Positions 3,001 through 56,604 of a DNA stretch of 64,000 nt are shown here, piece by piece. Under the pieces are notes generated by a model. It had not been told where the DNA came from, made no database searches, and saw nothing but the letters and a program-made list of their open reading frames with translations. The DNA comes from a bacterium (GTDB lineage Bacteria > Patescibacteriota > Minisyncoccia > Phycocordibacterales > UBA918): positions 891 through 64,890 of the forward strand of contig JAYSUD010000007.1 in NCBI GenBank assembly GCA_043719295.1. The letters run 5' to 3'. Numbering within the stretch: the first letter of the stretch is position 1; the number at the start of each line of letters is the position of its first letter. The translations under genes and the position numbers were made by a program.

Positions 3001-4731
3001 GAAGATATCTGTATTAAAATCGTCTAATCCAATTACAGCGGTACCGGAAGCATTAAGCTCAAGACGCTTCATCCACATTTGAGAATAATCACCAATAAAA
3101 AGCGAATTATTATAGATTGAGGGATAGACTCCATTATCTGGAAATGATCCGGCTGTTATAGAACCCGCTCCTGAGGCATTGTGAGGGTATGTATAAACTG
3201 GATTAATGTGCAAAGAAGTAGTCTCACAACCATAACTTGTCGCGAAGTCTCCTTCCCGACATGGCCAACCATAGTTACCTCCCGGTACTATCCGATTAAT
3301 TTCTTCCCAACTACCCCAACCGACATCGCCTACATACAGCTGTCCTGTGGTTGGGTGAAAGTTAAATCTGAAAGCATTTCTTAGACCAAGTGCATACACT
3401 TTTGATCGATTTGAATTAGGATCCCCATTATAAAATGGATTGTCAGTAGGAGCTGTTCCATCTGTGTTAATGCGGAGTATTTTACCTGCCAAAGCATCAA
3501 TATTTTGAGCTCGAAGCGCACGAGGATCAACAGTAACAAAATCAGCACCATCCCCCAAAGTTGCATACAGTTTTCCATCAGGACCAAACCGCAAGCCTCC
3601 AACACTGTGACTGTTTGAGTCCGAGGCTATACAGTCGTCAGTTACTAATAAATCTTCACAGGATGGAGAGTCGATTGAGCCTCCGTCACTACCAACTAAA
3701 ACAAACTTACTTGACTCACTGGCAACATCACCCACGACTGTAAGTCTTACAATTCGACCAGTTTTTGGACCAGCTACATTAACACCAGGAGTGTTTTCAT
3801 AAGTGTATAACGCATAAATATAGCCATTGATAGAGAAATTTGGATCAACAGCCAAACCTAAAAGACCACGGTCACCGAAATTATTAACGTCAGTGAGAGT
3901 AACTAACGGCTCAGGCAGTAATATGTCATTTTTAATAATCCTTATCGAGCCTCCTTTTTCAGCAATTAAAATCCGCCCATCTGGTGTAAACGCTGCAGCA
4001 GTTGCTAAAGCAAAACCTTCTGCAACTACTACACTCTCAAATCCAGGCTCCACAATTTGTGCTTCAGCCCACAAAGGTAACGAAAACATCACAATTCCGA
4101 CAACGATACCAAGCGCAACCGGCAAGGCTAACGAAATGCTTACACGAAGTGTAGAACTAAGACTTCGTATAGGTTCAATCTTCGGAACCCTCTTGAGGAA
4201 AAAATTCTGAATTGGCACTGTTTTAGACTGAATCTGTAAAATTCCTTTTTGAATTGTAGTACCGAACGCACTAATAAAAGACACAAACGTTTTATAGGAT
4301 CGTATGAGTGTCGCATTATTCATAGTGATACGGATTGACTCATTAAGTTTATTCCTGTTTTTAGAGAATAGCCAGACCATCAGGACTCCAAATATAAACA
4401 CTAAAACCATTGGGTATTGTGGTAATACCATAATAAGTTCAAAAAACTTTCCAAAATAGTATTTATATAAGATAACTTGTGGTTCATCTGCTCCAACTTT
4501 TAATGCAGTACCAATAGCAATCGAACCAAGCATAAGCATATAACTACTAACAAAAAGCAAAATTGCGTACGAAATAAGCTTGTTTACAAATTTATTTCTT
4601 ACTATACCCCCATCTTTATTATAAGTCTGGTAGGCTGAGCGATGACCTCTACCGCGTAGATAGTTTAAAATCTTGGCTGAAATGATAATAGCCAAGTGAA
4701 TAAATACAGATAATCCGAAAATTGGTATCAT
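1..4731 (-). CDS. Giant cell-surface protein, partial (ORF continues beyond window start; >1570 aa in window). N-terminal TM segments, glucose/sorbosone-dehydrogenase-like (SGDH/PQQ-type) beta-propeller, PKD domain, then at least three CBM4_9-like + bacterial Ig-like repeat units
   Basis: Hand translation of minus strand from ATG (4731-4729): MIPIFGLSVFIHLAIIISAKILNYLRGRGHRSAYQTY... Frame checked codon by codon at 4621-4731 and at 61-120 (…GAHIISARAVDAAGNIQDAA); no stop seen. Absent from supplied ORF track because no in-window stop. Motifs read: GGSIRIIKNDILLPEP/GDRGLLGLAVDPNF (SGDH-like propeller), PLNVSFSSLGTYDPDGNPMTYAWTFGDGSTS (PKD), repeated NGDFE…(CBM-like) followed by APY…WDTT…DG.Y…A.D..GN (Ig-like). 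Supplied track has only short ORFs across 1-4737, consistent with one long minus-strand reading frame. Confidence 0.75.
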   Translation of the reverse strand, partial: MIPIFGLSVFIHLAIIISAKILNYLRGRGHRSAYQTYNKDGGIVRNKFVNKLISYAILLFVSSYMLMLGSIAIGTALKVGADEPQVILYKYYFGKFFELIMVLPQYPMVLVFIFGVLMVWLFSKNRNKLNESIRITMNNATLIRSYKTFVSFISAFGTTIQKGILQIQSKTVPIQNFFLKRVPKIEPIRSLSSTLRVSISLALPVALGIVVGIVMFSLPLWAEAQIVEPGFESVVVAEGFALATAAAFTPDGRILIAEKGGSIRIIKNDILLPEPLVTLTDVNNFGDRGLLGLAVDPNFSINGYIYALYTYENTPGVNVAGPKTGRIVRLTVVGDVASESSKFVLVGSDGGSIDSPSCEDLLVTDDCIASDSNSHSVGGLRFGPDGKLYATLGDGADFVTVDPRALRAQNIDALAGKILRINTDGTAPTDNPFYNGDPNSNRSKVYALGLRNAFRFNFHPTTGQLYVGDVGWGSWEEINRIVPGGNYGWPCREGDFATSYGCETTSLHINPVYTYPHNASGAGSITAGSFPDNGVYPSIYNNSLFIGDYSQMWMKRLELNASGTAVIGLDDFNTDIFPVEIITGPDGNVYYIDIVFGNLNRITHTDGNRRPVVLLNANPIFGLSPLNVSFSSLGTYDPDGNPMTYAWTFGDGSTSVAANPSHTYLVNGTYNASLVVTDSLGSAVAESTTIYVGNQSPQAQITTPSSGSLYVSGGMITVRGEGTDPEDGIIPPSAFSWEVVLHHNVHTHSIYQANGTTSIRFPADDHTANDVYVEVILTVLDSNGLSNRKSINLYLNNGIGSGNLVTNPSVEIEGTFVTSPLDWYQNWYGVMNPIFTYPVVGYAGAKAAEINVTNYESGSAKWLSSPAFVTPGESYTFSNLYTATAPTDVLVQFVRTNGTTEYLFLSVVPPVSQPTRNTFTFIVPAGVETATIFHELANNGRLTIDDFSLTLTNGGDVMPPSGIINNITSGSVLSNVTQVGVDATDNIGVASVQLYIDSNPVGVNDSEAPYTLQFDTTALTDGNYALSARISDTSGNTTDTPSITVSIDNGNNNLPNLIQNGDFEIANGLNPLGWQPGGFGTLTSEFTYPVTGVGGGSAIQVVITDYEYGDTGDARWVHTSVPVDSGTEYTYRTMYKSNSISDIIGRYTFADGSDHHFGLIKEIQPTDSWTQLEKTFVPPVGAETITFFHLISSEAILAIDNVELYATGTGTPSEINAPRVNFVYPNVGDVLSGTVTLVATSSDDTSVVGVYFAINGVLHGVEDATAPYEVVWDTTAYPDGDYVIKATSHDPYGNNDKVERLVTVNNISSTTPPAGGNLVLNSGFETLGTTGNPQNWNRGGWGTNNRVFTYPTTGYSGSAASVTISGYTNGDAKWFFNDVPVAPGTEYTISDKYNSTIGSEALIRYTTTSGASQYQFLQALPTTGGTWATMSRTFTPPTGVVSMTLFHLIAGNGTLIIDDVSVSGPGATSTADTISPTVSIVAPSVGIAVSGTTTITATASDNVAVTGVTLLIDGNVVGSQDTTAPYTFLWNSASVANGAHIISARAVDAAGNIQDAAPISVTVNNTVVNPPSNNLVI

Positions 4732-4737
4732 AAAAAA

Positions 4738-10833: not shown

Positions 10834-10950
10834 GTGAGGTATTTCTTTTTCTACTGGAGTATTTTCGCTCGTAGGAGTTGACATAAGACGCAAAATATAT
10901 CATAATCATCACCTAATTGCAACTTGCATATCTAGCTGAAACAAGGTTTT

Positions 10951-11152
10951 CAGAAACGAGTGCAATTCGAGGCGGGCAAAGAAATTTTTACGAGGTGTGA
11001 GAAGTGACTGAATGTCACTTCGCAAGACTCAATGAGACAATTCGTAACGAAGTGGAGAAGAGTCCATTAAGTGGACAGCTTCGGTACGAAGAGTTGTAGT
11101 ACATTGAGAAAAAATTTCTGTAGGCCAACGAAGAAGTGTGCCGTTTGTGGAA
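10951..11152 (+). repeat. Intergenic repeat element copy R1 (longest form; 5', middle and 3' modules all present)
   Basis: CAGAAACGAGTGCAATTCGAGGCGGGCAAAGAAATTTTTACGAG … GAGAAGTGACTGAATGTCACTTCGCAAGACTC … ACGAAGAAGTGTGCCGTTTGTGGAA; related copies at 24085, 26191, 38481, 43103, 44470, 50037(rc), 54270, 54996. Confidence 0.6.
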
Positions 11153-11164
11153 ATCTAACATACT

Positions 11165-11887
11165 ATGTCATCAGAAAATAATATCTATCCTATGCGATTG
11201 AATAAATACTTGGCTCACCAAGGTACTGCTTCACGTCGGGAAGCTGACACCCTTATTGAACAAGGGCAAATTCTTGTTAATGGGAAAACTGCGGTTATGG
11301 GTCAAAAAGTTGAACGAACTGACACCGTTACTCTTAAAGGCTCTACAAAAGAAAAGAAGTATCTTGCTTACTACAAAGGCCGAGGGATTATTACTCACTC
11401 ACCGAGTGCTGGCGAAGTTGATATTGCAACAAAACTTAAAGAAGACTACAGCATCACTGATGTGAACCCTGTTGGACGGCTTGATAAAGATTCTGAAGGA
11501 CTGATGATTTTAACTAACGATGGCCGTATTACAGGCCCCTTACTCGACCCCGAAGCAGAACACGAAAAAGAATACGAGGTATCCGTTGATAAACCAGTTA
11601 ATGGTTTTTTCTTGAAACAACTTGAGCACGGAGTAAACATTGAAGGTTATTTTACAAAACCATCAACAGCAACCAAACACAAACACCCACTGAAGTTCAC
11701 GCTAATCCTAACTGAAGGTAAAAAACACCAAATCCGGCGTATGTGTGCAGCACTAGGCTACCAAGTCCAAGACCTCAAACGAGTACGTATTGCCAACATT
11801 GAGTTAGGCGAACTCAAGCCAAACCAATACCGAATCCTAAAAGGCCAAGAACTCGAAGCTTTCCTAAAAGAACTCAACACCAACTAA
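11165..11887 (+). CDS. rsuA: Pseudouridine synthase, RsuA/RluB family (S4 domain + catalytic domain)
   Basis: N-terminal S4-like MRLNKYLAHQGTASRREAD; catalytic motif VGRLDKDSEGLMILTNDG; KKHQIRRM motif. Exact paralog (RsuA vs RluB) uncertain. Confidence 0.8.
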   Translation: MSSENNIYPMRLNKYLAHQGTASRREADTLIEQGQILVNGKTAVMGQKVERTDTVTLKGSTKEKKYLAYYKGRGIITHSPSAGEVDIATKLKEDYSITDVNPVGRLDKDSEGLMILTNDGRITGPLLDPEAEHEKEYEVSVDKPVNGFFLKQLEHGVNIEGYFTKPSTATKHKHPLKFTLILTEGKKHQIRRMCAALGYQVQDLKRVRIANIELGELKPNQYRILKGQELEAFLKELNTN

Positions 11888-11913: not shown

Positions 11914-11940
11914 AGTCCGAGGTCCGACCTCGGACTTTTA
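11914..11940 (+). terminator. Rho-independent terminator hairpin (AGTCCGAGG tccg ACCTCGGACT + TTTT) after rsuA
   Basis: Perfect 9-bp stem read in sequence followed by T-tract; a near-identical palindrome recurs at 20557-20576. Confidence 0.5.
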
Positions 11941-11960
11941 AATATTTAAATAAATGAAAA

Positions 11961-17835: not shown

Positions 17836-17922
17836 GGAGAGTTCGCATAGTGGTCTAGTGCACTGCCTTGGAAAGGCAGCATCGGGGCAACCTGATCAGG
17901 AGTTCAAATCTCCTACTCTCCG
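17836..17922 (+). tRNA. tRNA-Ser (anticodon GGA), long variable arm
   Basis: Acceptor GGAGAGT/ACTCTCC, 3-bp D-stem, anticodon stem CTGCC/GGCAG with loop TTGGAAA (GGA), 18-nt variable arm, T-arm AGGAG-TTCAAAT-CTCCT, discriminator G. Confidence 0.85.
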
Positions 17923-17925
17923 CAT

Positions 17926-18732
17926 ATGGGATACTGTATATATTGCGATAGCAAAAGTGAACTTACTGACGAACATATCATCCCTCATGGTTTAGGAGGA
18001 AAGCTGATTCTTAAGGACTCGAGCTGTAAAACATGTGCGATTGAGACGAGTCGTCTAGAAGATGCTTTACTCAGGGGTCATTGGGCTAGCGCAAGAAAGC
18101 ACTTAAACATGCCAAGCAGACATAAAAGGAGAAACGAAGGAAATCCTACGATGGCTGAAATAAAAATTATTAGACGTAATGGCATTATCTTATTAGCGCA
18201 AATAAGAGCTGACGAAGCAAATTTTTTGCTTTTGCCGTATCTATTCAGATCTGAATTACTACACGAACCAATATTAGAGGGTATCAAACCGTATGCAAAG
18301 AATTTTGGTTTTATCTTCTTAAAAATTAACGGCCCTTCTAAAGCGTACATCAGTGGTAACGAATACAAATTTGACGGAAGTGAAAAGATTGAAAATATAA
18401 TAAATAAATTTGATTCTAACAATATATTTCGTTTCTTGGCTAAAATTGCTCACTCCTATGCCATACACATCTATGGACTCAGTGCATGTAATGAGTATTA
18501 CTTACCGAAAATAATACTAGGGAATGTTACTGAAGCAATGCAGTATATTGGAAATGCTCCAGATGAGATGCAAAATTTAAGATTAGATAAGTGTGATGAT
18601 TTTCATTCATTAAAATCAGAAATATTAGATGGTCACTTGTGTGTATATATCCAACTCTTCAATGTTACCAACTTTACGCCAACACCTATTTATCAAGTTG
18701 TAGTCGGACGTGTGAATGCACAAGGAGACTAA
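17926..18732 (+). CDS. HNH endonuclease-domain protein with ~215-aa C-terminal domain of unknown function
   Basis: CIYCDSKSELTDEHIIPHGLGG…SSCKTCA (Cys4 zinc finger + HNH His); starts 4 nt after tRNA-Ser; very AT-rich. Confidence 0.6.
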   Translation: MGYCIYCDSKSELTDEHIIPHGLGGKLILKDSSCKTCAIETSRLEDALLRGHWASARKHLNMPSRHKRRNEGNPTMAEIKIIRRNGIILLAQIRADEANFLLLPYLFRSELLHEPILEGIKPYAKNFGFIFLKINGPSKAYISGNEYKFDGSEKIENIINKFDSNNIFRFLAKIAHSYAIHIYGLSACNEYYLPKIILGNVTEAMQYIGNAPDEMQNLRLDKCDDFHSLKSEILDGHLCVYIQLFNVTNFTPTPIYQVVVGRVNAQGD

Positions 18733-18807
18733 TGTGCCCCCCTTATCCAATTGCATATTGTAAAACCTCATCAATAAACAACTCCCGAAACTTTTTTTGA
18801 TTTTTTG

Positions 18808-19608
18808 TCACTTTAATCTTTTCTTCTCAAACTTCTTAATCCGTGTTTTTGCTTTCCCAACACCGTCAACCACTGGCAAATTCTCTGGCATAGTACCGCC
18901 AATATTTCTAATAGTGTTCCTCACTTTTTGTCCAACTTCAAAGTGTGCTAGGTTGGCATTACCTTCGCCTTTAATGTTTTCTCTTCGAATTTTTGCGTCA
19001 GTTTGTGTCGCTCGAAATAGATTGGCTGCTAATTCTTCGCTGTTCATATGATCGAGAATTTGCTGAGATGTGCCTAACTTCTTTTTTTCATGAATATCTT
19101 GCATTGTCATTCCACCATACAATCCTTTATAGCCTGCGTTTTGGAAAATTGCATAATTTTGAACACCTGCACCCTTAGCTGTTTTGGTGAGTGACGTATT
19201 ATGCTTTTTTATTTCTTCACGCAGAAAAACTCGTTTGTTATCTTCAACGAGATTATCCGTGTCTTCTTGGCGATGAGTCTGAATGGCAAAGTAAGTTTGT
19301 CCTTTCGCCACGACAACTTTGGTAGGGTTTGAGTTTTGCACAATCAAATAACACGCATAGCGAGACAAATAGACTGTTTCAACGTTCTTTTCCGCTCCTG
19401 AACCAATTGCGACCATATCGGTGGCTTCAACGAAATGGCTGTGGATAACCTCGCCACTATTCTCGCACGCAACCCTTGCTTTACTTATCACGGTTTGAAA
19501 ATTTCGATAATCGGAGTATTCAAGAGCCTTAGCTAGATCACGAGACGACCAATACTCTGCACCTTGGTCGTCCAAACGCTTGATAGTTTCGAACTGATTT
19601 TCTTTCAT
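18808..19608 (-). CDS. dinD: DinD-family (DNA-damage-inducible protein D-like) protein
   Basis: Hallmark blocks EYWSSRDLAKALEYSDYRNFQ, MVAIGSGAEK, LSRYACYLIVQN, GQTYFAIQT, AIFQNAGYKGLYGG, ELAANLFRATQT, TMPENLP collinear with E. coli DinD as recalled. Confidence 0.8.
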   Translation of the reverse strand: MKENQFETIKRLDDQGAEYWSSRDLAKALEYSDYRNFQTVISKARVACENSGEVIHSHFVEATDMVAIGSGAEKNVETVYLSRYACYLIVQNSNPTKVVVAKGQTYFAIQTHRQEDTDNLVEDNKRVFLREEIKKHNTSLTKTAKGAGVQNYAIFQNAGYKGLYGGMTMQDIHEKKKLGTSQQILDHMNSEELAANLFRATQTDAKIRRENIKGEGNANLAHFEVGQKVRNTIRNIGGTMPENLPVVDGVGKAKTRIKKFEKKRLK

Positions 19609-20543: not shown

Positions 20544-20591
20544 AGTATGTTCAAAAGTCCGAGGTCGGACCTCCTCACATGCCAAGACAGC

Positions 20592-24067: not shown

Positions 24068-24084
24068 AGAATTAATAGAACTTT

Positions 24085-24194
24085 TAGAAACGTGTACAAT
24101 TCGAGGCGTGCAAGTTAAATATGACGAGGTGTACGCATAGTACATAGAGGAATATTTTACGCAGCACAACGAAGAAGTGTGCCGTTTGTGGAAG
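24085..24194 (+). repeat. Intergenic repeat element copy R2 (5' module + 3' module)
   Basis: …GTGTACAATTCGAGGCGTGCAAG…CAACGAAGAAGTGTGCCGTTTGTGGAAG. Confidence 0.55.
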
Positions 24195-24201
24195 TTCTAA
24201 C

Positions 24202-26091: not shown

Positions 26092-26190
26092 ATACAGATT
26101 TTTTTAATTACACGATATTGATTTTCATATTAAAAAAGAACAATACTCGTGTATTGTTCTTTTTTAATCTTTTATACAATAAAAGCTCAT

Positions 26191-26290
26191 AAATCGAAGT
26201 GGGTACGAGGCGCACAAAGAAATTTTTACGAACCCTACATGCTGTAGGTCGAGTGAAAATTTACTGCAGCACAACGAAGTAACCGACCGA
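26191..26290 (+). repeat. Intergenic repeat element copy R3 (degenerate 3' module) between convergent regulator and groEL
   Basis: …GGGTACGAGGCGCACAAAGAAATTTTTACGAACCCTACATGCTGTAGGTCGAGTGAAAATTTACTGCAGCACAACGAAG…. Confidence 0.45.
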
Positions 26291-26304
26291 TTTTAAGTTT
26301 TTAT

Positions 26305-27957
<1,653 letters not shown>

Positions 27958-31271: not shown

Positions 31272-33308
31272 ATGGAACAAAATAATCACAACGCACAAAC
31301 ACCGCGACCTACATCAGCTCCTTCACGAGGAACTACTCCCCACGCACCGCGACGACAGTACGCAGGCGCTTCACAACCATCAAGTCGGAGTACTTCATTT
31401 ACACGGCGTCCGTATGGAGCACAAACACCACGGCAAACAACGGGAGCCGCTCCTTCAACAAACCCTCACCAAAGAACTACCGGTGAGCGAACTTCACGAA
31501 CTACAGGTGCGCCGAAGCGAAGTCGTGGACGTAAAGATAACAACAGAGGACGAAAATCAATGACCAATCCTGCGTTAAAGCACCGGATGAACATCAAAGA
31601 TGAAAAAACACCAGTACTTGTAGAAGTAACCGACGAAGATACAGTTCGAGTAATCCCTATGTCGGGAGTTGAGCAAATTGGTCGGAACATGACCATTGTT
31701 GAAACAAAAGATGATATCCTCATCTTCGATATTGGATTCCAATTCATCTCACCTGAAAGTAACGCGCCAGGAGCTGACTATATTCTTCCAAACACCCAGT
31801 ATCTTGAAGAACGTCGCCATAAAATCAAAGGGCTTATTGTTACCCACGGTCACCTCGACCACATTGGAGGTATTCCGTTTGTTATGGAACGAATTGGTAA
31901 CCCACCAATTTACACACAATACCTAACGTCATTGATGATCCTCAAACGTCAAGAAGAATTCCCCCACATGGAACCAATAACAATGCACGTTATCAAAGAA
32001 GGTGATTCTTTTGTTGTAGGTAACACAAAAATTAAGTCTTTCCCTGTAACCCACTCTATTCCTGACGCAATGGGGATTTCTGTTGAAACAAAGCATGGAG
32101 ATATTGTTATTACCGGAGACATTAAACTTGTTCATGAGAATGGAGTTGTTGTCGTTGAAGAACGAGAAGCATGGGAAAAAGTAGGACAAAATAAAAACAT
32201 CATGCTGGTGTGTGATTCAACCAACGCCGATCAAAGTGGTTTCTCAGCACCTGAAGGAGTAGTATTCAAAAGTATTGAAGAAATCATTACTAACGCATCA
32301 GGCCGTTTGATTGTTGGTACCTTCTCCTCACAATTTGACCGCTTAACAAATATCATTAGAACCTGTGAGAAGCTCGGAAAAAAAGTTGTGCTTGAAGGGC
32401 GAAGCATGAAGAACAATATCGACATTGCAATAGTGGCAAAACTTTTAATTGTTGATCCCAAAGTGTTCATTAGTGCAAATGACATGCCAAATTATCCAAG
32501 TGATAGAATTGTTATCCTTACAACAGGAGCCCAAGGCGAAGAAAATGCAGCACTCATGCGTATGGCAACTGACAAACATAAATTTGTGACGCTAAGTGAG
32601 AGAGATACGCTAGTACTTTCCTCTTCAGTTATTCCAGGAAATGAAGTTGCAGTCCAAAAGCTTAAAGACAATATTTACCGTAAAAACGTTCGCGTGATTA
32701 ACTACAAGTCTGCAGCAGTGCACTCTTCAGGACACGGTAACGCCTCTGAGCTTGTATGGGTACATCAAACAGTAAAGCCAACATTCTTACTTCCTGTTCA
32801 TGGACACCACTACCACCTTAAGAGTCATATGTACGTTGCAATTGAAAATGGTTTCAAACGCGAAAACATTGTAGTACCTGATAACGGAACTATCATCGAT
32901 ATTAAAAACGGAACTGAACTTACTGTTCACAAAGACAAAGCACCAAATGAAATAGTGCTTGTTGATGGATTTACCGTTGGAACACGACAAGAAGTTGTGC
33001 TACGAGACCGTATTTCCCTTTCAGAACAAGGTATGTTTGTCATTATTGCGACCATCAATACAAAAACAGGAAAACTCCGAAAATCACCAGACATTATTTC
33101 TCGAGGATTTGTCTACTTACGAGAAAGCCAACAACTACTCTCAGAAGCACGTATTTTAATTAAGAAAACGGTAGAAAAAAACACAGAGCGAATGAACCCT
33201 ATTGACCTCGATATTGTCAAAGAAGAACTTTCTGATGTGGTAAGTTCGTTCTTAATGCAGAAGACGCAGAAGTCACCGATGGTTATTCCAGTGTTAATTG
33301 GGATTTAG
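31272..33308 (+). CDS. rnj: Ribonuclease J (metallo-beta-lactamase/beta-CASP) with ~110-aa basic low-complexity N-terminal extension
   Basis: VTHGHLDHIGG (HxHxDH), beta-CASP and C-terminal domain order; N-terminal R/T/P/S-rich extension. Confidence 0.9.
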   Translation: MEQNNHNAQTPRPTSAPSRGTTPHAPRRQYAGASQPSSRSTSFTRRPYGAQTPRQTTGAAPSTNPHQRTTGERTSRTTGAPKRSRGRKDNNRGRKSMTNPALKHRMNIKDEKTPVLVEVTDEDTVRVIPMSGVEQIGRNMTIVETKDDILIFDIGFQFISPESNAPGADYILPNTQYLEERRHKIKGLIVTHGHLDHIGGIPFVMERIGNPPIYTQYLTSLMILKRQEEFPHMEPITMHVIKEGDSFVVGNTKIKSFPVTHSIPDAMGISVETKHGDIVITGDIKLVHENGVVVVEEREAWEKVGQNKNIMLVCDSTNADQSGFSAPEGVVFKSIEEIITNASGRLIVGTFSSQFDRLTNIIRTCEKLGKKVVLEGRSMKNNIDIAIVAKLLIVDPKVFISANDMPNYPSDRIVILTTGAQGEENAALMRMATDKHKFVTLSERDTLVLSSSVIPGNEVAVQKLKDNIYRKNVRVINYKSAAVHSSGHGNASELVWVHQTVKPTFLLPVHGHHYHLKSHMYVAIENGFKRENIVVPDNGTIIDIKNGTELTVHKDKAPNEIVLVDGFTVGTRQEVVLRDRISLSEQGMFVIIATINTKTGKLRKSPDIISRGFVYLRESQQLLSEARILIKKTVEKNTERMNPIDLDIVKEELSDVVSSFLMQKTQKSPMVIPVLIGI

Positions 33309-33462
33309 TTTAAACTTCCAAATTCGGCGCATTTCTTCGTTGCCTCACTCATTTGCTCCCGCGCAGTAGAACTACTACAGCTTGGTCGCAAGCCTCGCTT
33401 GCGCCTCGAACTACATCCAAATTTGAAAGTTTAAAAAACTTAATCTTTATACATAAATTAAA

Positions 33463-36051: not shown

Positions 36052-36867
36052 TTAGCCGGGCAGTTGATACTTGCTTTGTATCTTAACAATCATCCCTTCC
36101 TGAATAAGATTCTCTACTTGTGCATCAATTCTAATGTCTTCAAATGAAGAAAGTTCAGTATGCAGTGTTTTTCGTGTGCCTGGCTTCTTTGTTAGTAGTC
36201 GAATCACTGTGCCTCTGATTTGTCTATCACTTCCCTTAAAAGAAGATTGTTTAGTATAATGTTTACTCTTAGTATTTGGGTTTCCAAATTCTTTCTTGAT
36301 GTATGAACCATAGTCCATCAACGCGTAATACCATTCTCTTGGATTTTGATTGTCACAGGTTAGTACGATATATCGTACTAATTGCGCATCAGAAATTTCT
36401 GATTCGTCTTTGAAAAAATGATGTAAAAAGACCGCACGCACATTTGTTTCAATGAGCGCAACGGGTGTATTAAAAGCAAATGCTAACACCGCTTTAGCGG
36501 TATACGGTCCGATTCCAGGAAGTGTGCCCAGTGTTTCTTCTGTCTTTGGAAACACCCCCTTATGCAAAGCTACGATAACTTGAGCACAAGAAAGCAACAT
36601 TTTTGCACGCCTGTTATACCCAAGTCCTTGCCATAGTGTAAGCACATCAGCAAGTGATGCTTTAGAGAGTTTCTGTATAGTCGGATACTTTGCTAAAAAA
36701 GCCTCATATTTCGGTATCACTCTATCAACCTGTGTTTGTTGCAACATCATCTCAGAAACCAAAATGGCATACGGATCACGGGTTTGCCTCCATGGAAGTT
36801 GATGTCTCCCGTTCTCTTTATAAAACGTCAGAACTGTAGCTACAAACTTTTGTTCTCTTTTTGTCAT
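36052..36867 (-). CDS. MutY-like HhH-GPD DNA glycosylase lacking the [4Fe-4S] Cys cluster
   Basis: LPWRQTRDPYAILVSEMMLQQTQVDRVIPKYEAFLAKYPT…LPGIGPYTA (MutY N-terminal blocks); no Cys after the GPD region. Confidence 0.7.
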   Translation of the reverse strand: MTKREQKFVATVLTFYKENGRHQLPWRQTRDPYAILVSEMMLQQTQVDRVIPKYEAFLAKYPTIQKLSKASLADVLTLWQGLGYNRRAKMLLSCAQVIVALHKGVFPKTEETLGTLPGIGPYTAKAVLAFAFNTPVALIETNVRAVFLHHFFKDESEISDAQLVRYIVLTCDNQNPREWYYALMDYGSYIKKEFGNPNTKSKHYTKQSSFKGSDRQIRGTVIRLLTKKPGTRKTLHTELSSFEDIRIDAQVENLIQEGMIVKIQSKYQLPG

Positions 36868-38235: not shown

Positions 38236-38466
38236 CTATTTTACAGTGTCTGTTACGTCTTTATACTGAAATAAAGGGTTCTTTGGAATAATTATATATG
38301 CAATAAGATAGATAAGGAGCCCTGGCATGAAGCCAGTGATAATCAAAAAAACAACAAATCCAAATCTCCATAAAGTTGCATCTTGATTAAAATGTTCAGC
38401 AAATCCTGCAAGCACTCCCCCTGCAATACTGTCTTTTGTACTTCTGTATATTTTTTTTGGTTGCAT
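38236..38466 (-). CDS. PspC-domain membrane protein
   Basis: IAGGVLAGFAEHFNQDATLWRFGFVVFLII…IIP matches PspC domain. Confidence 0.65.
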   Translation of the reverse strand: MQPKKIYRSTKDSIAGGVLAGFAEHFNQDATLWRFGFVVFLIITGFMPGLLIYLIAYIIIPKNPLFQYKDVTDTVK

Positions 38467-38480
38467 AGTTTTATTAGATT

Positions 38481-38600
38481 AGACGTTCATAGGTGCCTTA
38501 GATACGCGAAGTACAAAGAAATTTTTTGGAGATGTGCAAGGGCACATTGACAAAAAATTTCTGTAGTACGACAAAGTAGCTAAGGTGCATATGAACGTCT
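38481..38600 (+). repeat. Intergenic repeat element copy R4 bounded by ~21-bp imperfect terminal inverted repeats (AGACGTTCATAGGTGCCTTAG … CTAAGGTGCATATGAACGTCT)
   Basis: TIRs 17/20 Watson-Crick + 2 G-U; core ACAAAGAAATTTTTT…AAAAAATTTCTGTAG shares modules with R1/R3/R7. Confidence 0.55.
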
Positions 38601-39282
38601 ACAGTTCGTAAATTACGTCCTTTCGCTCTACCACCACCTTCCAATCTCGCTTCTTTGCTTCATTAAATAGACCATTATTTGGATTAAAACAAATTGGAAT
38701 TGCAACTGACTTTAGTAGTTCAATATCTCCTTCTGTATCACCAACCCCAATTGAATCTTCCGTAGTCACATCTTCTTTTTCGAGTACTCGCGCAACAATG
38801 TTTGCTTTATTTTCAACAAGGTGCACATCAACCATGATTCCCGTAAACAAGTCTTGTGGGCCAATTTCATAAATCCTCCCATACACTTTGTTGAATCCAT
38901 AATCCTTGCAAAACTCATCTAAAATTGTTTTTGGAGATTGTGAAATTGCTACAAGGTAATAGTTGTCACGCTTGAGTGTTGCAATGAGGTCGCGGGTATA
39001 TCGATACACATAGTTACCTTGTTCTGATACAACCAGCTTCCCCACATCAGCAAGATCTCCATAGTGTATGCCTTTGATGTGAACGATGTATGATGCGACA
39101 ACGGCTTTAATATACGCGTCATAGGTTCCCTCTCTATTTCTCCATGCGTGATACTCTTTGACATACCCATCTTTAGCTTTTTTAGGAAAGATACCTTCTT
39201 TAATTAAAGCTTCCATAAGTTCAATTACTAAACTTGAACGAAACAGAGTTCCATCAATATCAAAGAAAGCGACTTTTTGCAT
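38599..39282 (-). CDS. HAD-superfamily hydrolase, subfamily IB (phosphoserine phosphatase-like)
   Basis: FFDIDGTLF (motif I), …SQSP (motif II region), GVGDTEGDIELL (motif IV). Confidence 0.75.
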   Translation of the reverse strand: MQKVAFFDIDGTLFRSSLVIELMEALIKEGIFPKKAKDGYVKEYHAWRNREGTYDAYIKAVVASYIVHIKGIHYGDLADVGKLVVSEQGNYVYRYTRDLIATLKRDNYYLVAISQSPKTILDEFCKDYGFNKVYGRIYEIGPQDLFTGIMVDVHLVENKANIVARVLEKEDVTTEDSIGVGDTEGDIELLKSVAIPICFNPNNGLFNEAKKRDWKVVVERKDVIYEL

Positions 39283-39533
39283 GAGTCTATTTTATACTAA
39301 AAAAGGCCGAGGACAAACCTAGGCCTAACAATTAACAGAATGAATCTAGCTGCAAGGGCAAAAAACTAGTCTGCCCTTGCATAGAGCGAGAATAAAGGTC
39401 GCAATTCTACTCCCACCATGGATGGTGATAGCTTCAACCAAACTTCACCATAAGAACAAGAATCTCTTCTCTTGGAAGGAGTACCGAGAGGGAGAATGCA
39501 TTGCCCACATAGACTATACAGTGAAACAAATGC

Positions 39534-43059: not shown

Positions 43060-43102
43060 ATAATGATGAATTATATTTTCATAGAATTATTAGCAGAATC
43101 AA

Positions 43103-43247
43103 CAGAACGAGTGCAATTCGAGGTTAAATAGTGACTTAATGTCACTATTTAAAAGGTTGTCGATATTTTGTTAAAAATATCATACAACCTTAACCGTTCA
43201 TGTAATGAAGAAAAGAAACATGAAAAGAAGTGTGCCGTTATGTGGAT
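43103..43247 (+). repeat. Intergenic repeat element copy R5
   Basis: CAGAACGAGTGCAATTCGAGG…AGTGACTTAATGTCACT…GAAAAGAAGTGTGCCGTTATGTGGAT. Confidence 0.5.
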
Positions 43248-43430
43248 TCTATTTTACAACGTATTCTACAGGTGCCTGCAAAATACTTGCCATCAAAACG
43301 CCGAGTAAAATGAGGAACAGTGCTGCACAAAAAAGTGCAATTTTGGGAAACGAAGGCTCCATCTTGCCCGAATGCCAATTTCGAGAGAAAAGAAATGAGA
43401 ATACAAACTGAAATATTGACATAGTAACTT

Positions 43431-44432: not shown

Positions 44433-44469
44433 TAAATTTATTTATTTCATGTATAGGACTTTTGTAAGT

Positions 44470-44592
44470 GAGTGAGAAGTGATATAAAATCACTTTGCAA
44501 GAGGTTACCTGCTCTTTTGGAAAAAGAGTGATAACCTGAACAGTTTCTGTAAGAAACTAGAGAGACGAAGAAGTGTGCCATTTACGAAAGTC
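44470..44592 (+). repeat. Intergenic repeat element copy R6 (middle hairpin module + 3' module)
   Basis: GAGTGAGAAGTGATATAAAATCACTTTGCAAGAGGTTACCTGCTCTTTTGGAAAAAGAGTGATAACCTG…GACGAAGAAGTGTGCCATTTACGAAAG; nested hairpins readable. Confidence 0.55.
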
Positions 44593-45531
44593 CTAAGTAA
44601 ATAGTATCACGAAGCCAACAGTAATAATGGCTATATACACCGACTTCCTCATAATTGTCTTAAAGTCGAATTCATTTTCTCCTGCAGCATGCGGGATAAA
44701 CCGTCCAACAAGGAGACTCAAAAGAATGATAAACGCGAACTTAAGTCCATCAAGTGCCTGCACGACTGCAACATCACCTAAGTCAGTAGCTTTAAGCAAC
44801 ATGAACGCTGCTGCTCCCGCAAGCACTTTTGTAATAAGTACAATCCATCCTGTTTTCTTCGAAGTCTTAGCAGTAGCTGCAGTAATTTCGTCATAGTATG
44901 AAGGTACTAACAAAAGAGAAAGCGCAAAAAGTACAAACCCAATCCGTGACCAGAAGAAACCATCAGCAAAACTCGTTTGCTCGAAAAGTCCTTTCATCAC
45001 GACGTAGTGTAATGCAAAAAAGAGACCACTGTGCACGATATGGAGAATCAGACTCCGATTACCTTTTAATCGCACGTGTGAAAGAAGGAGTGTTCCCAGA
45101 CTTAATAGTCCAATACCCCACAAAAAATGAGGTGCTAGTGGAATGTTAAAGAACAGATACGCCAGCCCAAAAGAAGATATTGCAGAGATGGCACCAATTG
45201 CCGGCATCACGTCTGAAGCATCTTGGTGTTTAAGAGCATCAAACATAGACACGAGTGCCATGAAGAAGGTGTACGCAGCTAAAAACGACATAGCTACCAC
45301 TTGGATAGATGGTTTTTGTACGTCAGCTAAACTTGGAATACCAATTGCATGAAGCCCTGGGATGAACGCAAGTATAAAAATCACCACCCAAAACCCCGTC
45401 ATCAAACATGAATAAAAAGCATACACAAAAGGACGAGGAAGCGCTTTCTCGTCAGAGACAATATATTTATCCAAAATCGCAACAATAGCGTTCAGGAATT
45501 GCCCAGCTGTCGCAAGAATAATCCAGTTCAT
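44593..45531 (-). CDS. Polytopic membrane protein (EamA/DMT-like, ~10 TM)
   Basis: Repeated hydrophobic helices throughout 312 aa; family assignment tentative. Confidence 0.45.
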   Translation of the reverse strand: MNWIILATAGQFLNAIVAILDKYIVSDEKALPRPFVYAFYSCLMTGFWVVIFILAFIPGLHAIGIPSLADVQKPSIQVVAMSFLAAYTFFMALVSMFDALKHQDASDVMPAIGAISAISSFGLAYLFFNIPLAPHFLWGIGLLSLGTLLLSHVRLKGNRSLILHIVHSGLFFALHYVVMKGLFEQTSFADGFFWSRIGFVLFALSLLLVPSYYDEITAATAKTSKKTGWIVLITKVLAGAAAFMLLKATDLGDVAVVQALDGLKFAFIILLSLLVGRFIPHAAGENEFDFKTIMRKSVYIAIITVGFVILFT

Positions 45532-45662
45532 GAAAGTCTCTTAAGTATCTCATTATTTGATTGAAATAACCCCAAACCTATCCCCAAAGATTAGTATTAA
45601 AAAAATTAACCGGCAACTTGTTCAGTTGCCGGTCATACATTCCTCCAAAAAAAGTTTTGTGA

Positions 45663-46043: not shown

Positions 46044-46245
46044 CGAAATTTCTCCACTTTAGGTTGAGGGTGAATGTAGCATGTTGAAGCAGCTACAGTA
46101 ATATTCTACATATATTTATGCTTTTGTCAATATATTGAGGTAATGTGAAAGAACCTTTGGGGATGTCCTCAAATAATCTCAAGCAAACCAGGTTTTTCCA
46201 AATTGTACGATATATCGTACTATTTTGAAATTACAATAATTATTT

Positions 46246-48018: not shown

Positions 48019-48381
48019 TCATGATTGTTCGTTTCTGATTCTCACAAAAAAGAATTCACTGGTGACATCACCTGATGCTTCGATTTTATGCTCTAAGTTT
48101 GCAGGATTATAAATAAAATCTCCGGCAACATAGTCAAACCGCTCACCAGTACTGTATTCAATAAACCCCTTACCTGTGGTAACAATCCAAAATTCATCAA
48201 TTTCAATATGCTGATGCCAATTGAATACACTTCCTAGTTCTAGATACCCTTTCGTGACTGCTTCGATATTTGGAGAAATATCATCTGCACTACTGATAAG
48301 TAACTTTCGAGAGCCACTACCAGCATGAGCTTGCTCAGTTGCAATATTTTCAATAACCTTTTTAAACGGTTTTCGTTGCAT
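48019..48381 (-). CDS. Cupin-domain protein
   Basis: 120 aa; NWHQH…(His cluster) and …GDFIYNPANLEHK typical two-motif cupin pattern. Confidence 0.55.
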   Translation of the reverse strand: MQRKPFKKVIENIATEQAHAGSGSRKLLISSADDISPNIEAVTKGYLELGSVFNWHQHIEIDEFWIVTTGKGFIEYSTGERFDYVAGDFIYNPANLEHKIEASGDVTSEFFFVRIRNEQS

Positions 48382-49980: not shown

Positions 49981-50036
49981 TCACCCATAGTAGCAAAAAA
50001 GAAGCTTCAGAGCTTCTTTTTTTCTTGGTATAACTT

Positions 50037-50181
50037 AGTACTTACGCAAACGGCACATTTCGCCTCACTATCTCTTACAGAGACTGTCCACTCATTGGCT
50101 TTTATTCCACTTCGTTTCATAAAACCTCAATGAGTCTTGCGAAGTGATGTAAATCACTTCTCACTCGTTTGCGTAAGTACT
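50037..50181 (-). repeat. Intergenic repeat element copy R9 (inverted orientation) bounded by perfect 16-bp terminal inverted repeats AGTACTTACGCAAACG … CGTTTGCGTAAGTACT
   Basis: Reverse complement aligns with R1 middle/3' modules (GAGTGAGAAGTGATTTACATCACTTCGCAAGACTCATTGAG…CGAAGTGGAATAAAAGCCAATGAGTGGACAG…GGCGAAATGTGCCGTTTGCGTAAG). Confidence 0.6.
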
Positions 50182-50185
50182 ATGA

Positions 50186-54190: not shown

Positions 54191-54269
54191 ATGACTATTC
54201 TACCTTCTTTTTTAACCGATTAACAACTTGACGTTGCACCTTAGTGATAGTGCGAGAATTTGAGACTTT

Positions 54270-54383
54270 CAGAAATGAGTACAATTCGAGGCGGGCTAAA
54301 GAAATTTTGCGAGCCCTACTTGCTGTAGGGTGAGAAAAAAATCTTGTAGCCCAACAAAGAAGTTGTGCCATTTATGGAAGTCG
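54270..54383 (+). repeat. Intergenic repeat element copy R7 (5' module + small hairpin + 3' module)
   Basis: CAGAAATGAGTACAATTCGAGGCGGGCTAAAGAAATTTTGCGAG CCCTAC ttgctg TAGGGT GAGAAAAAAATCTTGTAGCCCAACAAAGAAGTTGTGCCATTTATGGAAG. Confidence 0.55.
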
Positions 54384-54386
54384 AAG

Positions 54387-54914: not shown

Positions 54915-54995
54915 ACTATGTAATCGATTAAATAATACCTACTATACCATAATCTAATAAACCTAAATTAATGTGATTTTGACCATAGTCCTTTC

Positions 54996-55130
54996 ACAAA
55001 CGAGTGAGAAGTGACTAGATGTCACTTCGCAAGAGGTTGCCTACTCTTTTGGAAAAAGAGTGACAACCTGTACAGTTCCAGTAGGGAACAAGAGAGTCTA
55101 CAACGAAGAAGTTGTGCCGTTTGTGGAAGG
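54996..55130 (+). repeat. Intergenic repeat element copy R8 (middle hairpin module + 3' module), near-identical architecture to R6
   Basis: CGAGTGAGAAGTGACTAGATGTCACTTCGCAAGAGGTTGCCTACTCTTTTGGAAAAAGAGTGACAACCTG…CAACGAAGAAGTTGTGCCGTTTGTGGAAGG. Confidence 0.55.
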
Positions 55131-55131
55131 G

Positions 55132-56604
55132 CTATACAATATCGCCAATCTCTTTAGCTATAACAGTCTCAGCCTCATCAATATTTTTACGAAGCCGTTT
55201 AAGAATCTTCGCCTCGGCTTGTGTAAGCTTTCTTTTTTTACTTGTTTTTTCAAGTGTTGCAATATCTTCCAATAAATCAGTACGTAAAAGTTCAAACGCT
55301 TTATGTGTCATAGCTTTCGCTTCAGCAACTTCTTTGGCAACATGTCGACGCAAGCCACCAAATGCTTTCCAAGTAGCGAAGAGTACCCCACAAAGAAGTA
55401 CCACAAGCGCCAAAAATGGTATGACAATTGAAAGTATCATAATAACAAAGTCACCTTTTTGTTTAATACCCCCATTTAAAGTTTCATCATTTTCTTCAAG
55501 TATCACCGACTTATCTATAACAGTAAATGATATTTTTGATTCTGTTGTATTACCTGCACCATCAAAAGCTGTAACAGTAAGGACATGAACTCCTTCTTCA
55601 ATCGCTGTAATTTTATATATATGACTTCCATCATCCACAAACGATACTGGTGTTTCTTCGTTTATTTGCACTGTATACGAAGCAATCTTTGAAAGTTCAT
55701 CTTCAGCTTCAAAGAGAAACGAAAGTGGCGCAACTTCCGTTACTGTAAAAGGTTGTGGTGCTACTGTGTCAACTTGTATTTTATAATGTATTACTTCACT
55801 CCATCCTTGTTGACCTAAAGACTGCACATGAAGGTACGAAGTTCCTTCAGGTAGGTCTTGTATTACTTTAGTTTCTATCGGAGGTTCATACAGTACCGCG
55901 GGTTTTGAACTAGGGTTATCATCAAGGAGCAATCGTAATGCTTTAGTATCACGAACAAACGTAAAGGTAAACATTCCTGTTGTAGTAGAAGACCACCCAT
56001 CTTGTGTATGCGTTGCTGATGTTATTGTCGGTGGAAGTGTTGCGGGACCAGAGGATAGAGATTCTTCTTGTTGCACGCTTTGTACAACAACTTCTGGAAG
56101 TAACGTAAATGAAGCAGTTCCTTTACTTGCAAGAATCTCTGTCCCTTCCCCATCATTTGCAAGTAACGAAGCTGAAGAAAATGAAAGTGAGGAAGCTCCT
56201 TGTGATTTTACCCTAAATGTCAGATTAAGAACCTTCCCTTGTGATCCCTTAAATCCTGGATTAAGAACAATGCCCTCAAAGTTCACTGTTCCTTTAGTAT
56301 TTGAAAATGAAGGTTCTTGAACCCACAAAGACATAATCGACTGGTTCTTTGAAATACTTATAACCTCGAGTTTGTCTTGAGGGTAGGACACAACACCAGA
56401 AACAGCGTTAATAGAAGATTCACCACTTCCTGTATACACACCAACAGTAAATGTTGAACCTTGAGCATAAGAACCTGTTGTTGGAGAAAATGTTAACGTT
56501 GCCGCTAGAGTAACTCCCACTTGAACGAAAAAAAGAAAAATTACAAATGTGAACGTACAGAAAAAGTTCGCCGATATATAAAATATGTTACAAGAAGAAC
56601 GCAC
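55132..56604 (-). CDS. Cohesin-like domain surface protein with Ig-like middle region, C-terminal TM anchor and cytoplasmic coiled-coil tail
   Basis: N-terminal LTFSPTTGSYAQGSTFTVGVYTGSG…INAVSGVVSYPQDKLEVISI… fits cohesin beta-sandwich pattern; TM FVIMILSIVIPFLALVVLLCGVLFATW. Confidence 0.5.
   Translation of the reverse strand: MRSSCNIFYISANFFCTFTFVIFLFFVQVGVTLAATLTFSPTTGSYAQGSTFTVGVYTGSGESSINAVSGVVSYPQDKLEVISISKNQSIMSLWVQEPSFSNTKGTVNFEGIVLNPGFKGSQGKVLNLTFRVKSQGASSLSFSSASLLANDGEGTEILASKGTASFTLLPEVVVQSVQQEESLSSGPATLPPTITSATHTQDGWSSTTTGMFTFTFVRDTKALRLLLDDNPSSKPAVLYEPPIETKVIQDLPEGTSYLHVQSLGQQGWSEVIHYKIQVDTVAPQPFTVTEVAPLSFLFEAEDELSKIASYTVQINEETPVSFVDDGSHIYKITAIEEGVHVLTVTAFDGAGNTTESKISFTVIDKSVILEENDETLNGGIKQKGDFVIMILSIVIPFLALVVLLCGVLFATWKAFGGLRRHVAKEVAEAKAMTHKAFELLRTDLLEDIATLEKTSKKRKLTQAEAKILKRLRKNIDEAETVIAKEIGDIV

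Follow-up and report, generated by a model that had tools for sequence, protein, structure and literature searches.

ERIC elements (also called IRU) are imperfect palindromes of ~127 bp that occupy intergenic positions within transcription units, form long RNA hairpins, occur in size variants that arise by internal insertion, are reportedly flanked by TA and affect neighbouring mRNAs in an orientation-dependent way. The Correia elements of Neisseria (CREE or NEMIS) are 100-160 bp long and resemble MITEs (transposable elements of the miniature inverted-repeat type), possessing terminal inverted repeats (TIRs) of ~26 bp, duplicating TA and starting with TATAG; they are co-transcribed with their neighbours, their hairpins are processed by RNase III and their ends carry promoters and IHF sites. 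For neither of these two families do we know of a transposase. REPINs are long-lived, vertically inherited hairpin repeats with a conserved hairpin, recognized as single strands in a strand-specific way and carrying a GTAG-type motif, and MITEs of the Stowaway or IS630-Tc1-mariner type (e.g. RUP of S. pneumoniae) combine TA duplication and TIRs with a small size and a non-coding interior. Patescibacteria (candidate phyla radiation, CPR) possess genomes of ~1 Mb with almost no spacer DNA and are thought to be poor in repeats and mobile DNA; we know of almost no regulatory RNAs in them, and literature searches (full text, and recent preprints) returned no description of repeats such as those reported below. 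Here we analyse a 64-kb stretch of such a genome (positions 891 to 64,890 of contig JAYSUD010000007.1, assembly GCA_043719295.1; further called the window) and in it a 122-nt element, copy D, which occupies the spacer between two minus-strand genes, encoding a HAD-IB family hydrolase (upstream) and a small PspC-domain membrane protein (downstream). We favour, with modest confidence, the reading that copy D is a resident copy of a non-autonomous, palindromic mobile family of Paceibacteria (Patescibacteria/CPR) that is MITE-like and of the ERIC/Correia kind, in which the term MITE is a description of form and not of a demonstrated mechanism.

An earlier, sequence-only reading of this DNA had described copy D as a ~80-bp core bounded by TIRs of ~21 bp, with 17 of 20 positions in Watson-Crick pairs plus two G-U pairs. 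This pairing is essentially right: the arms AGACGTTCATAGGTGCCTTAG (38481-38501) and CTAAGGTGCATATGAACGTCT (38580-38600), when paired by hand over their 21 nt, form 18 Watson-Crick pairs, two G-T wobbles and one G-A mismatch. A repeat search, in addition, lengthened the arms to 26 nt (38480-38505 and 38576-38601, 85% complementary) and revealed within them an inner arm pair of 21 nt (38517-38537 and 38542-38562, 86%), so that the entire 122-nt copy (38480..38601, + strand) is one imperfect hairpin. The supposed TIRs are thus not the borders of a separate core, being instead the basal helix of a full-length hairpin whose 45 pairs covary. The 5' arm of this basal helix P1 (38480..38505, +) reads TA followed by GACG and contains a GGTGCC segment that forms tandem wobble pairs with the 3' arm (38576..38601, +), which ends in CGTC followed by TA. 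The apical hairpin (P3 and P4; 38517..38562, +) comprises the arms AAAGAAATTTTTT and AAAAAATTTCT and the purine-rich internal loops GGAG and TGAC. The family modules that had been noted inside copy D were located at 38515-38527 (AAAGAAATTTTTT) and 38552-38566 (AAAAAATTTCTGTAG). The only open reading frames (ORFs) across the 122 bp encode 48 and 55 amino acids and have no support, and the hairpin accounts for the full length, so copy D is regarded as non-coding. It represents a sub-type with the basal helix TAGACGTTCATAGGTGCC.../...GGTGCATATGAACGTCTA and the loops ACGCGAAG and CGACAAAG, which recurs in other genomes.

On folding, 38467-38610 reached -61.6 kcal/mol (z -9.35) for the + strand and -48.6 kcal/mol (z -9.99) for the - strand, and none of 200 dinucleotide shuffles folded as well on either strand. 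The better-folding strand of an element is further called its P strand; for copy D this is the + strand, on which the covariance model R1 of the family scored 111.3 bits vs 36.4 bits on the - strand. These numbers bear on the explanation that copy D is a hairpin of this locus only, either a terminator or attenuator of the HAD gene or a chance palindrome unrelated to any repeat family. A stable hairpin does directly follow the HAD stop codon, as this explanation demands, but no T-run comes after it, a terminator scan of copy D finds no site and the stronger hairpin lies on the antisense strand. The 111 bits to the family model, the 0/200 shuffles and a junction of only 4-11 nt in distant relatives render it highly improbable.

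At least ten related copies (A to J) are present in the window, making up ~2% of its sequence, which upholds the description of copy D as a short (122 bp), non-coding, inverted-repeat-bounded member of a dispersed multi-copy family. The window copies are 60-84% identical to reference copies without any near-identical pair, a level of identity that points to old copies. Most copies have the ends G(G/A)AC...GT(C/T)C flanked by TA on both sides, and the family basal module AAAYGAGTRCA...GAAGAAGTGTGCCRTTT, of which copy D carries a variant. Two architectures were distinguished. Type 1, to which copies B, C, D, E, J and the shell of A belong, consists of one long hairpin with the P-strand consensus P1 (variable) - AAAYGAGTRCAATTCGAGGCG - P2 - AAG - P3 - ACGAG - P4 - loop - P4' - TGAGG - P3' - YGTAG - P2' - CAACGAAGAAGTGTGCCRTTT - P1'. 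Type 2, seen in copies G, H and I and in the core of A (F being related), has the same TA-flanked G..C ends and basal module around an interior of three hairpins, which together form a four-way junction with covarying stems and the conserved linkers GCAAGA, ACAGU and AGAGAG. In size, full-length palindromy, intergenic position, TA flanks and internal-insertion variants (copy A and type 2), the family is thus like the ERIC elements as summarized above. It differs from them in its unrelated sequence, in its host phylum Patescibacteria, in a better-folding strand that is mostly antisense, in copies that abut stop codons, in an interior that is swapped between types at one orthologous site and in a conservation that spans several candidate orders or families.

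Pattern scans, after removal of chance matches, showed related copies in metagenome-assembled genomes (MAGs) of Paceibacterota, Kaiserbacteria and Parcubacteria and in metagenomes. Among the matches listed from a 17-mer scan of a genome collection (87 of 107 matched stretches), which are mostly chance matches in unrelated phyla, ~8 Paceibacterota/Kaiserbacteria/Parcubacteria loci are genuine. A 19-mer metagenome scan gave 75 loci, ~60 of them being one unrelated high-GC soil locus that shares the word by chance and ~12 being genuine; scans of viral contigs returned only chance matches within coding sequence. The covariance model R1, built from 13 copies, collected 35 hits of which 30 are distinct, and a model for type 2 (R2), built from three copies, detected this type in four further metagenome or MAG loci, i.e. 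L142, L156, L191 (twice) and L194 (L-numbers are labels of comparison loci in other assemblies or metagenomes). Rfam 15 gave no match for any copy, whether the gathering thresholds or E<=5 were applied; in the window as a whole it recognized only tRNA-Ser and four sub-threshold chance hits, all away from the repeats.

The arms had been taken for TIRs, the role of which would be that of transposase-binding ends, but what is conserved in this family is pairing within one strand. Across the 30 distinct copies, 92.5% of cells are in standard pairs, compared to 71% after shuffling and 36-45% when the partners were slid, 41 of the 45 pairs show changes on both sides, and 0 of 500 shuffles reached any of the observed measures, figures that are all flattered by the fitting of the alignment to R1; in an independent MAFFT/RNAalifold run with 13 sequences, 36 of the 45 pairs were compensated. 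Moreover, the departures from Watson-Crick pairing are strongly asymmetric, the P strand containing 127 G-U/U-G vs 23 A-C/C-A pairs. Four conserved wobble positions give ~79 of the 127, the remainder still being ~2:1 by per-column counts, and wobble pairs are conserved in 25 of the 30 copies at alignment columns 23/124 and in 27 at columns 63/83. Each of the ten window copies folds more stably on its P strand, the difference being 1 to 22 kcal/mol. A mutational origin of the asymmetry was considered and rejected: the + strand is C-rich across the whole window with a constant GC skew, which would predict A-C mismatches and not G-U pairs on the P strand. Because a replication-linked bias should act in the opposite direction, the wobble asymmetry looks selected. 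The P-strand internal loops are purine-rich with GAGG/GAAG facing each other, an arrangement that would be typical of protein-binding RNA motifs. Comparison by eye with consensus sequences suggested no convincing fit to attC, K-turn or loop-E.

This conserved fold brings in the main rival explanation, in which the P strand encodes a structured non-coding RNA and the spread of the DNA is secondary. Such an RNA could bind a protein or the ribosome, act as an antisense or roadblock RNA, or serve as a scaffold, its many gene copies would lie antisense at the ends of genes, and its features would be the long helix, the bulged A, the conserved tandem U-G/G-U pairs, the G-A-rich loops and the type-2 four-way junction. 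The covariation of 41/45 pairs, the 127 vs 23 wobbles that run contrary to what the GC-skew mutational bias would produce and the two conserved wobble pairs (columns 23/124 and 63/83) all argue for it, as do the loops CGAGGCG, ACGAG, TGAGG and CAACGAAG, which are conserved across Paceibacterota, Kaiserbacteria and Parcubacteria assemblies, the occurrence in other genomes of type 2 with its three covarying internal hairpins, and the constraint on the orthologous copy of L004 (see below). Conversely, copy D has no P-strand promoter or terminator and none recurs consistently at the element ends, what lies upstream of the P strand changes with every locus, and even at E<=5 there is no Rfam match. 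In addition, ~10 copies per 64 kb, variable interiors at one orthologous site and frequent losses are atypical of an RNA gene, and we regard the RNA-gene explanation as unlikely, though a rival to be taken seriously.

The ends of the family, TA followed by G, and the hairpin formed by the two termini recall the Correia elements. In those, copies are highly similar and only the ends pair, while the Paceibacteria family pairs over its full length, its copies are 60-84% alike and its changes are compensatory; nor was a promoter-like end found in it. An outward promoter consisting of the conserved TTGCAC as -35 and the terminal TA plus flank as -10 was tried and rejected, the mean best match being 7.1/12 vs 6.7 in the opposite direction.

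The HAD stop codon TAG (CTA on the + strand, 38599-38601) forms the last three bases of the right arm of copy D, which confirms the overlap reported in the sequence-only reading, and its suggestion of an insertion right at a gene end holds for the family as a whole. Out of 39 copies, 22 are accompanied by an ORF (at least 70 amino acids) on the opposite strand that stops between -36 and +5 nt from the P-strand 3' end (19 of the 22 between -8 and +5 nt), with TAG in 13, TAA in eight and TGA in one of these 22 cases, compared to only two solid cases among the 39 copies of a same-strand ORF ending at the P-strand 5' end. Likewise, window genes located just upstream of a copy have a TAG stop in 7 of 9 cases vs 18 of 56 other genes. 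Relative to the neighbouring genes, the P strand lies in antisense orientation at 8 of 9 informative sites of the window and at 7 of 8 in unrelated MAGs; with the extra sites in relatives, this makes about 17 of 20 independent sites overall.

In terms of DNA strands, the P strand is on the + strand in eight of the ten window copies. Copy J, located among plus-strand genes, has its P strand on the - strand without a change of GC skew at that place, and since it flips with gene direction while the skew remains constant, orientation appears to follow transcription and not replication, on the strength of this one informative case. The sense-oriented copies occupy transcription-unit edges: H precedes a terminator hairpin, A is placed between divergent genes and a copy of L190 and L191 is upstream of a 317-aa gene. 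We infer that within operons only those insertions are tolerated that place the weaker hairpin, with its A-C mismatches, in the mRNA, which is the account of the orientation bias that we prefer, and that the strongly folding strand is tolerated in sense at transcription-unit edges only.

Comparison with relatives shows at which sites occupancy differs. The loci L194, L195 and L196 are distant and fully syntenic (HAD 76-70% identical) and have compact junctions, the D site consisting of TAA, 4-11 nt and the PspC ATG. These three loci and L007 add up to 67.5 kb with a single R1 hit, vs 10 copies per 64 kb in the window and four per 12.5 kb in L190; as the distant syntenic relatives are nearly copy-free, the family has multiplied in the lineage of the window. 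Filled D sites (window, L003/L190 and L004) all read TA[G...C]TA, whereas all four empty loci that retain PspC (L191 and L194-L196) read TAA; L007, which is without PspC, has a TAG stop without element. The change from TAA (empty) to TA[G..C]TA A (filled) is the pattern expected from insertion at the TA of the stop codon with duplication of this TA. Both end columns of the model are occupied by TA in 13 of 30 copies, and 10 of 30 have TAG...CTA, at a TA background of 7%. The target-site duplication for which the sequence-only reading had proposed to look is therefore compatible with the TA flanks and with the stop-codon change, but the TA is inseparable from the conserved end bases. TA flanks that fit a duplication, TIRs, small size and a non-coding nature are shared with the MITEs of the Stowaway and IS630-Tc1-mariner type. 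In contrast to these, the window scans revealed no transposase of the IS630/mariner kind with ends that match, and the stretch between the conserved terminal GGAC and the AAACG block varies among copies yet stays complementary within each of them, something that a transposase binding double-stranded DNA does not need.

Among close relatives, occupancy differs at sites D, F, H and a site at 45.5 kb, so presence/absence polymorphism exists as had been anticipated, but part of it is due to secondary deletion. Copy D is missing in the closest relative by HAD (L001/L002/L191; 94% at the amino acid level) and is present in L003 (92%) and L004 (80%); because the more distant loci are filled, its absence is by parsimony a loss, the order of relatedness being a ranking of HAD identities to the window and not a computed tree. 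In L001, the 8-nt spacer plus PspC start TAAAAAGTCATATGCAACC aligns in register with the HAD-proximal element end TAGACGTTCATATGCACC (14/20 matches, including an identical stretch of 9 nt), which is what a deletion would leave behind if it had joined the TATGCA of the arm to that at the PspC start. The empty site of the closest relative, which might have served as the unoccupied target, therefore looks like a secondary deletion that left a relic. The window junction 45531-45550 (GAGACTTTC followed by ATG), upstream of a 312-aa gene, similarly retains the first 8 nt of a type-1 copy that is still found, in sense orientation, in L190 (4383-4511) and L191 (1282-1409), and appears to be a deletion relic as well; possible relics of the basal motif are also seen at the F sites of relatives. 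Presence/absence among close relatives is at least partly erosion by microhomology deletion and not evidence of recent insertion. An integron attC site was rejected as the identity of copy D: no RYYYAAC/GTTRRRY cores are visible at its ends, the window has no integrase, and the genes on either side are housekeeping genes whose synteny is kept in relatives without the element.

Copy D and the copy of L004 share 89.4% identity, compared to 77.8% for the HAD gene next to it and 52% for the third codon positions of that gene, so that the L004-orthologous copy is either constrained or refreshed by conversion, since a resident selfish copy should have decayed. Compared to the copy of L190, copy D is 70% identical: the basal helix is kept with a compensatory change (CCTTAG/CTAAGG in copy D, CCAGA/TCTGG in L190) and the apex is that of another sub-type. 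The sequence-only reading had opposed a conserved functional RNA structure at orthologous loci to the MITE interpretation, and such conservation is found in part: L003/L190 and L004 carry the element, compensatory changes occur and the L004 copy is conserved beyond neutral sites.

At site G, between the 312-aa gene and a GH42 gene, one and the same basal helix encloses three different interiors in the window (44454-44595, type 2), L190 (5445-5572, type 1) and L191 (2343-2671, two type-2 units). As this site and copy A, with its type-1 shell and type-2 core, show, the interior is exchanged while the base stays put, which could occur via recombination between the conserved basal modules or by nested insertion. 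A scaffold-and-cargo system can tentatively be proposed, an idea we hold to be rather unlikely, in which a basal helix (TA-flanked GGAC ends, a bulged A and tandem wobbles) carries exchangeable apical modules and the fold of the antisense strand is a functional RNA or single-stranded DNA recognized by a protein of Patescibacteria. The modules may be a type-1 single hairpin, a type-2 three-hairpin junction or nested copies, and the fold may act as an antisense or roadblock RNA at gene ends or be the substrate of a new hairpin-specific mobilization enzyme.

Strand-specific folding is also what would be expected of a single-stranded-DNA hairpin element derived from REPIN/RAYT or IS200/IS605, the folded P strand of which is moved by an HUH (Y1) enzyme encoded elsewhere in the genome; hairpin and G-T pairs would then stay selected for mobility. 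IS200/IS605 and REP elements have short sub-terminal hairpins, produce no target duplication, insert beside a specific 4-5-nt motif and have the lagging-strand template as active strand, and REP elements carry the GTAG/CTAC motif used by RAYT. The family has G-T wobbles on one strand of a strand-specific fold with covarying stems, a GTAG tetranucleotide between P3 and P2 in most copies and its P strand on the same DNA strand in 8 of 10 window copies. Its covarying hairpin, strand asymmetry and persistence at orthologous sites are REPIN-like. REP units, however, are short GC-rich hairpins of 20-40 nt that form inverted doublets and flank a single RAYT gene, while here the ends pair with each other over ~25 bp instead of forming separate hairpins, TA flanks are common and no RAYT was found in the window. 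Pfam scans of the window likewise revealed no Y1/HUH transposase, the P strand is mostly the C-rich strand and by GC skew would not be the lagging-strand template, and copy J follows gene direction and not replication. A single-stranded-DNA element of this kind is accordingly considered improbable.

As to the MITE-like reading itself, the family is short, non-coding, TIR-bounded and dispersed and shows presence/absence differences, which all fit the sequence-only proposal of a MITE; a transposase in the window and closely similar copies are lacking, the copies being 60-84% alike. Three points go beyond a plain MITE, i.e. the covariation of pairs, the one-strand wobble bias combined with antisense placement, and the conservation of the L004 ortholog. 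Several observations weigh against the reading we favour. Among ~50 window genes, Pfam scans found no transposase, recombinase, integrase or Y1/HUH domain (Y1_Tnp-type), so that the transposase with matching TIRs for which the sequence-only reading proposed to search is not among them, and no autonomous partner with matching ends was seen in the window. There is no sign of a recent burst among copies that are only 60-84% alike, whereas an active MITE would usually show one. The comparisons yielded no clear-cut case of a fresh insertion with a clean TA duplication, the TA flanks may be conserved terminal bases, and both of the cleanest empty sites among close relatives resemble microhomology deletions with relics. 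A conservation of 89% where synonymous sites are saturated is unexpected for a resident selfish copy. Finally, the covariation in the variable part of the basal helix, the conserved tandem wobbles, purine-rich loops and type-2 interior look more like a functional RNA than like transposase-binding ends.

In the mobile-family reading, copy D would have entered the 4-11-nt HAD-PspC spacer at the TA of an ancestral TAA stop, the first G of the element re-creating a TAG stop and neither gene being damaged. In compact genomes the TA of a stop codon may be one of few harmless targets, and stop-abutting copies would be frequent because of the rarity of such targets. Since then the hairpin has been kept by compensatory change, with its pairing on the strand antisense to the flanking genes, and the fold of the P strand, as RNA or as single-stranded DNA, would be under selection either for the propagation of the element or through co-option by the host.

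We consider this to be a new family of a known kind of element, notable for its strand-specific conserved fold, stop-codon docking, antisense bias and cargo swapping. Its elements would make use of the TA within a stop codon to enter spacers of 0-11 nt, and are then kept with a strand-specific fold. If this fold is functional, the family is a new and abundant RNA or single-stranded-DNA element in Patescibacteria; if it is purely selfish, it offers a clean natural case of a mobile element that colonizes a genome of extreme compactness and leaves the genes intact. Many of the larger gaps between genes in these genomes are accounted for by the family; in Paceibacteria assemblies its copies can be used to mark strains, and contigs may break at them.

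The other type-1 copies of the window are distributed as follows. Copy B (24076..24199, +; R1 129.3 bits) lies between two minus-strand genes and has the ends TAGAAC...GTTCTA. Copy C (26184..26300, +) is situated 9 nt after the stop of groEL (26305..27951, -), at a site that is also filled in the distant relative L194, and copy E is located at 54262..54384 (+; R1 121.6 bits). Copy J (33306..33435, -; R1 58.5 bits), a divergent member of type 1, has its P strand on the - strand and abuts the TAG with which the plus-strand gene for RNase J (31272..33308) ends. Copy A (10945..11155, +) combines a type-1 shell with a type-2-like core (10978-11121) nested in its apex and lies between divergent genes, directly upstream of the ATG at 11165. 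Type 2 is represented by copy G (44454..44595, +), with a basal helix and three internal hairpins and a terminal CTA that is the stop of the gene 44593..45531 (-), by copy I (54986..55134, +), the terminal CTA of which is the stop of the gene 55132..56604 (-), and by copy H (50036..50182, -), the sole window copy with its P strand in sense with the flanking genes, which is followed by a hairpin resembling an intrinsic terminator. Copy F (43091..43251, +) has the family basal module around a different interior and is missing in L001, L003 and L004, where possible relics remain.

Beside copy D, the HAD gene is located at 38599..39282 (-); its homologues have the Pfam domains PF00702 and PF12710 and some are named 'HAD-IB family hydrolase' of Patescibacteria or Paceibacterota, while an exact look-up of the protein itself returned no record. 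The PspC gene (38236..38466, -), the orthologues of which have PF04024, starts 13 nt past the left arm of copy D. Upstream of the HAD gene lies a 251-nt spacer (39283-39533) that is not a member of the repeat family and folds strongly into several hairpins on the - (sense) strand (-87.5 vs -70.0 kcal/mol). It ends in the terminator-like GGCCTAGGTTTGTCCTCGGCCTTTTTT, followed by TATAAAAT ~6-7 nt before the HAD ATG, an arrangement that suggests a leaderless transcript. The 3' part of this spacer is conserved in L191, and the spacer could be a small RNA or another element.

Elsewhere in the window, the near-perfect palindrome TAGTACGATATATCGTACTA (92% complementarity) occurs twice, at 36361-36384 and 46199-46222, one copy lying just downstream of a GH1 gene and the other within the coordinates of an HhH-GPD gene; it is also present after the GH1 stop in L190 (~4254-4275) and is a separate small repeat. 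The region 17836-19608 contains a tRNA-Ser(GGA) followed by an HNH_5 endonuclease-like ORF (17926-18732) and a Bro-N ORF (18808-19608, -). The HNH_5 and Bro-N genes beside the tRNA are the only mobile-looking genes in the Pfam-scanned window set, and the region may be a small integrated mobile or phage-derived island. A 27-nt inverted repeat GAGGTCCGACCTCGGACTTTTAAATAT (93%; 11919-11945 and 20547-20573) brackets ~8.6 kb with this tRNA-Ser/HNH/Bro region. Each of its arms is itself a small hairpin, and the pair could represent twin terminators or else mark the borders of a segment that has been inserted or can invert. A giant minus-strand ORF of at least 1579 amino acids (1-4737) runs off the window start and covers 520-4737, which excludes this region as an ORF-free stretch. 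In L190, a PhdYeFM/ParE toxin-antitoxin pair (1948-2462) lies between a PolB-exonuclease-like gene and the next gene, the corresponding place in the window being occupied by different genes, i.e. a cupin gene (48019-48381) and a 173-aa ORF.

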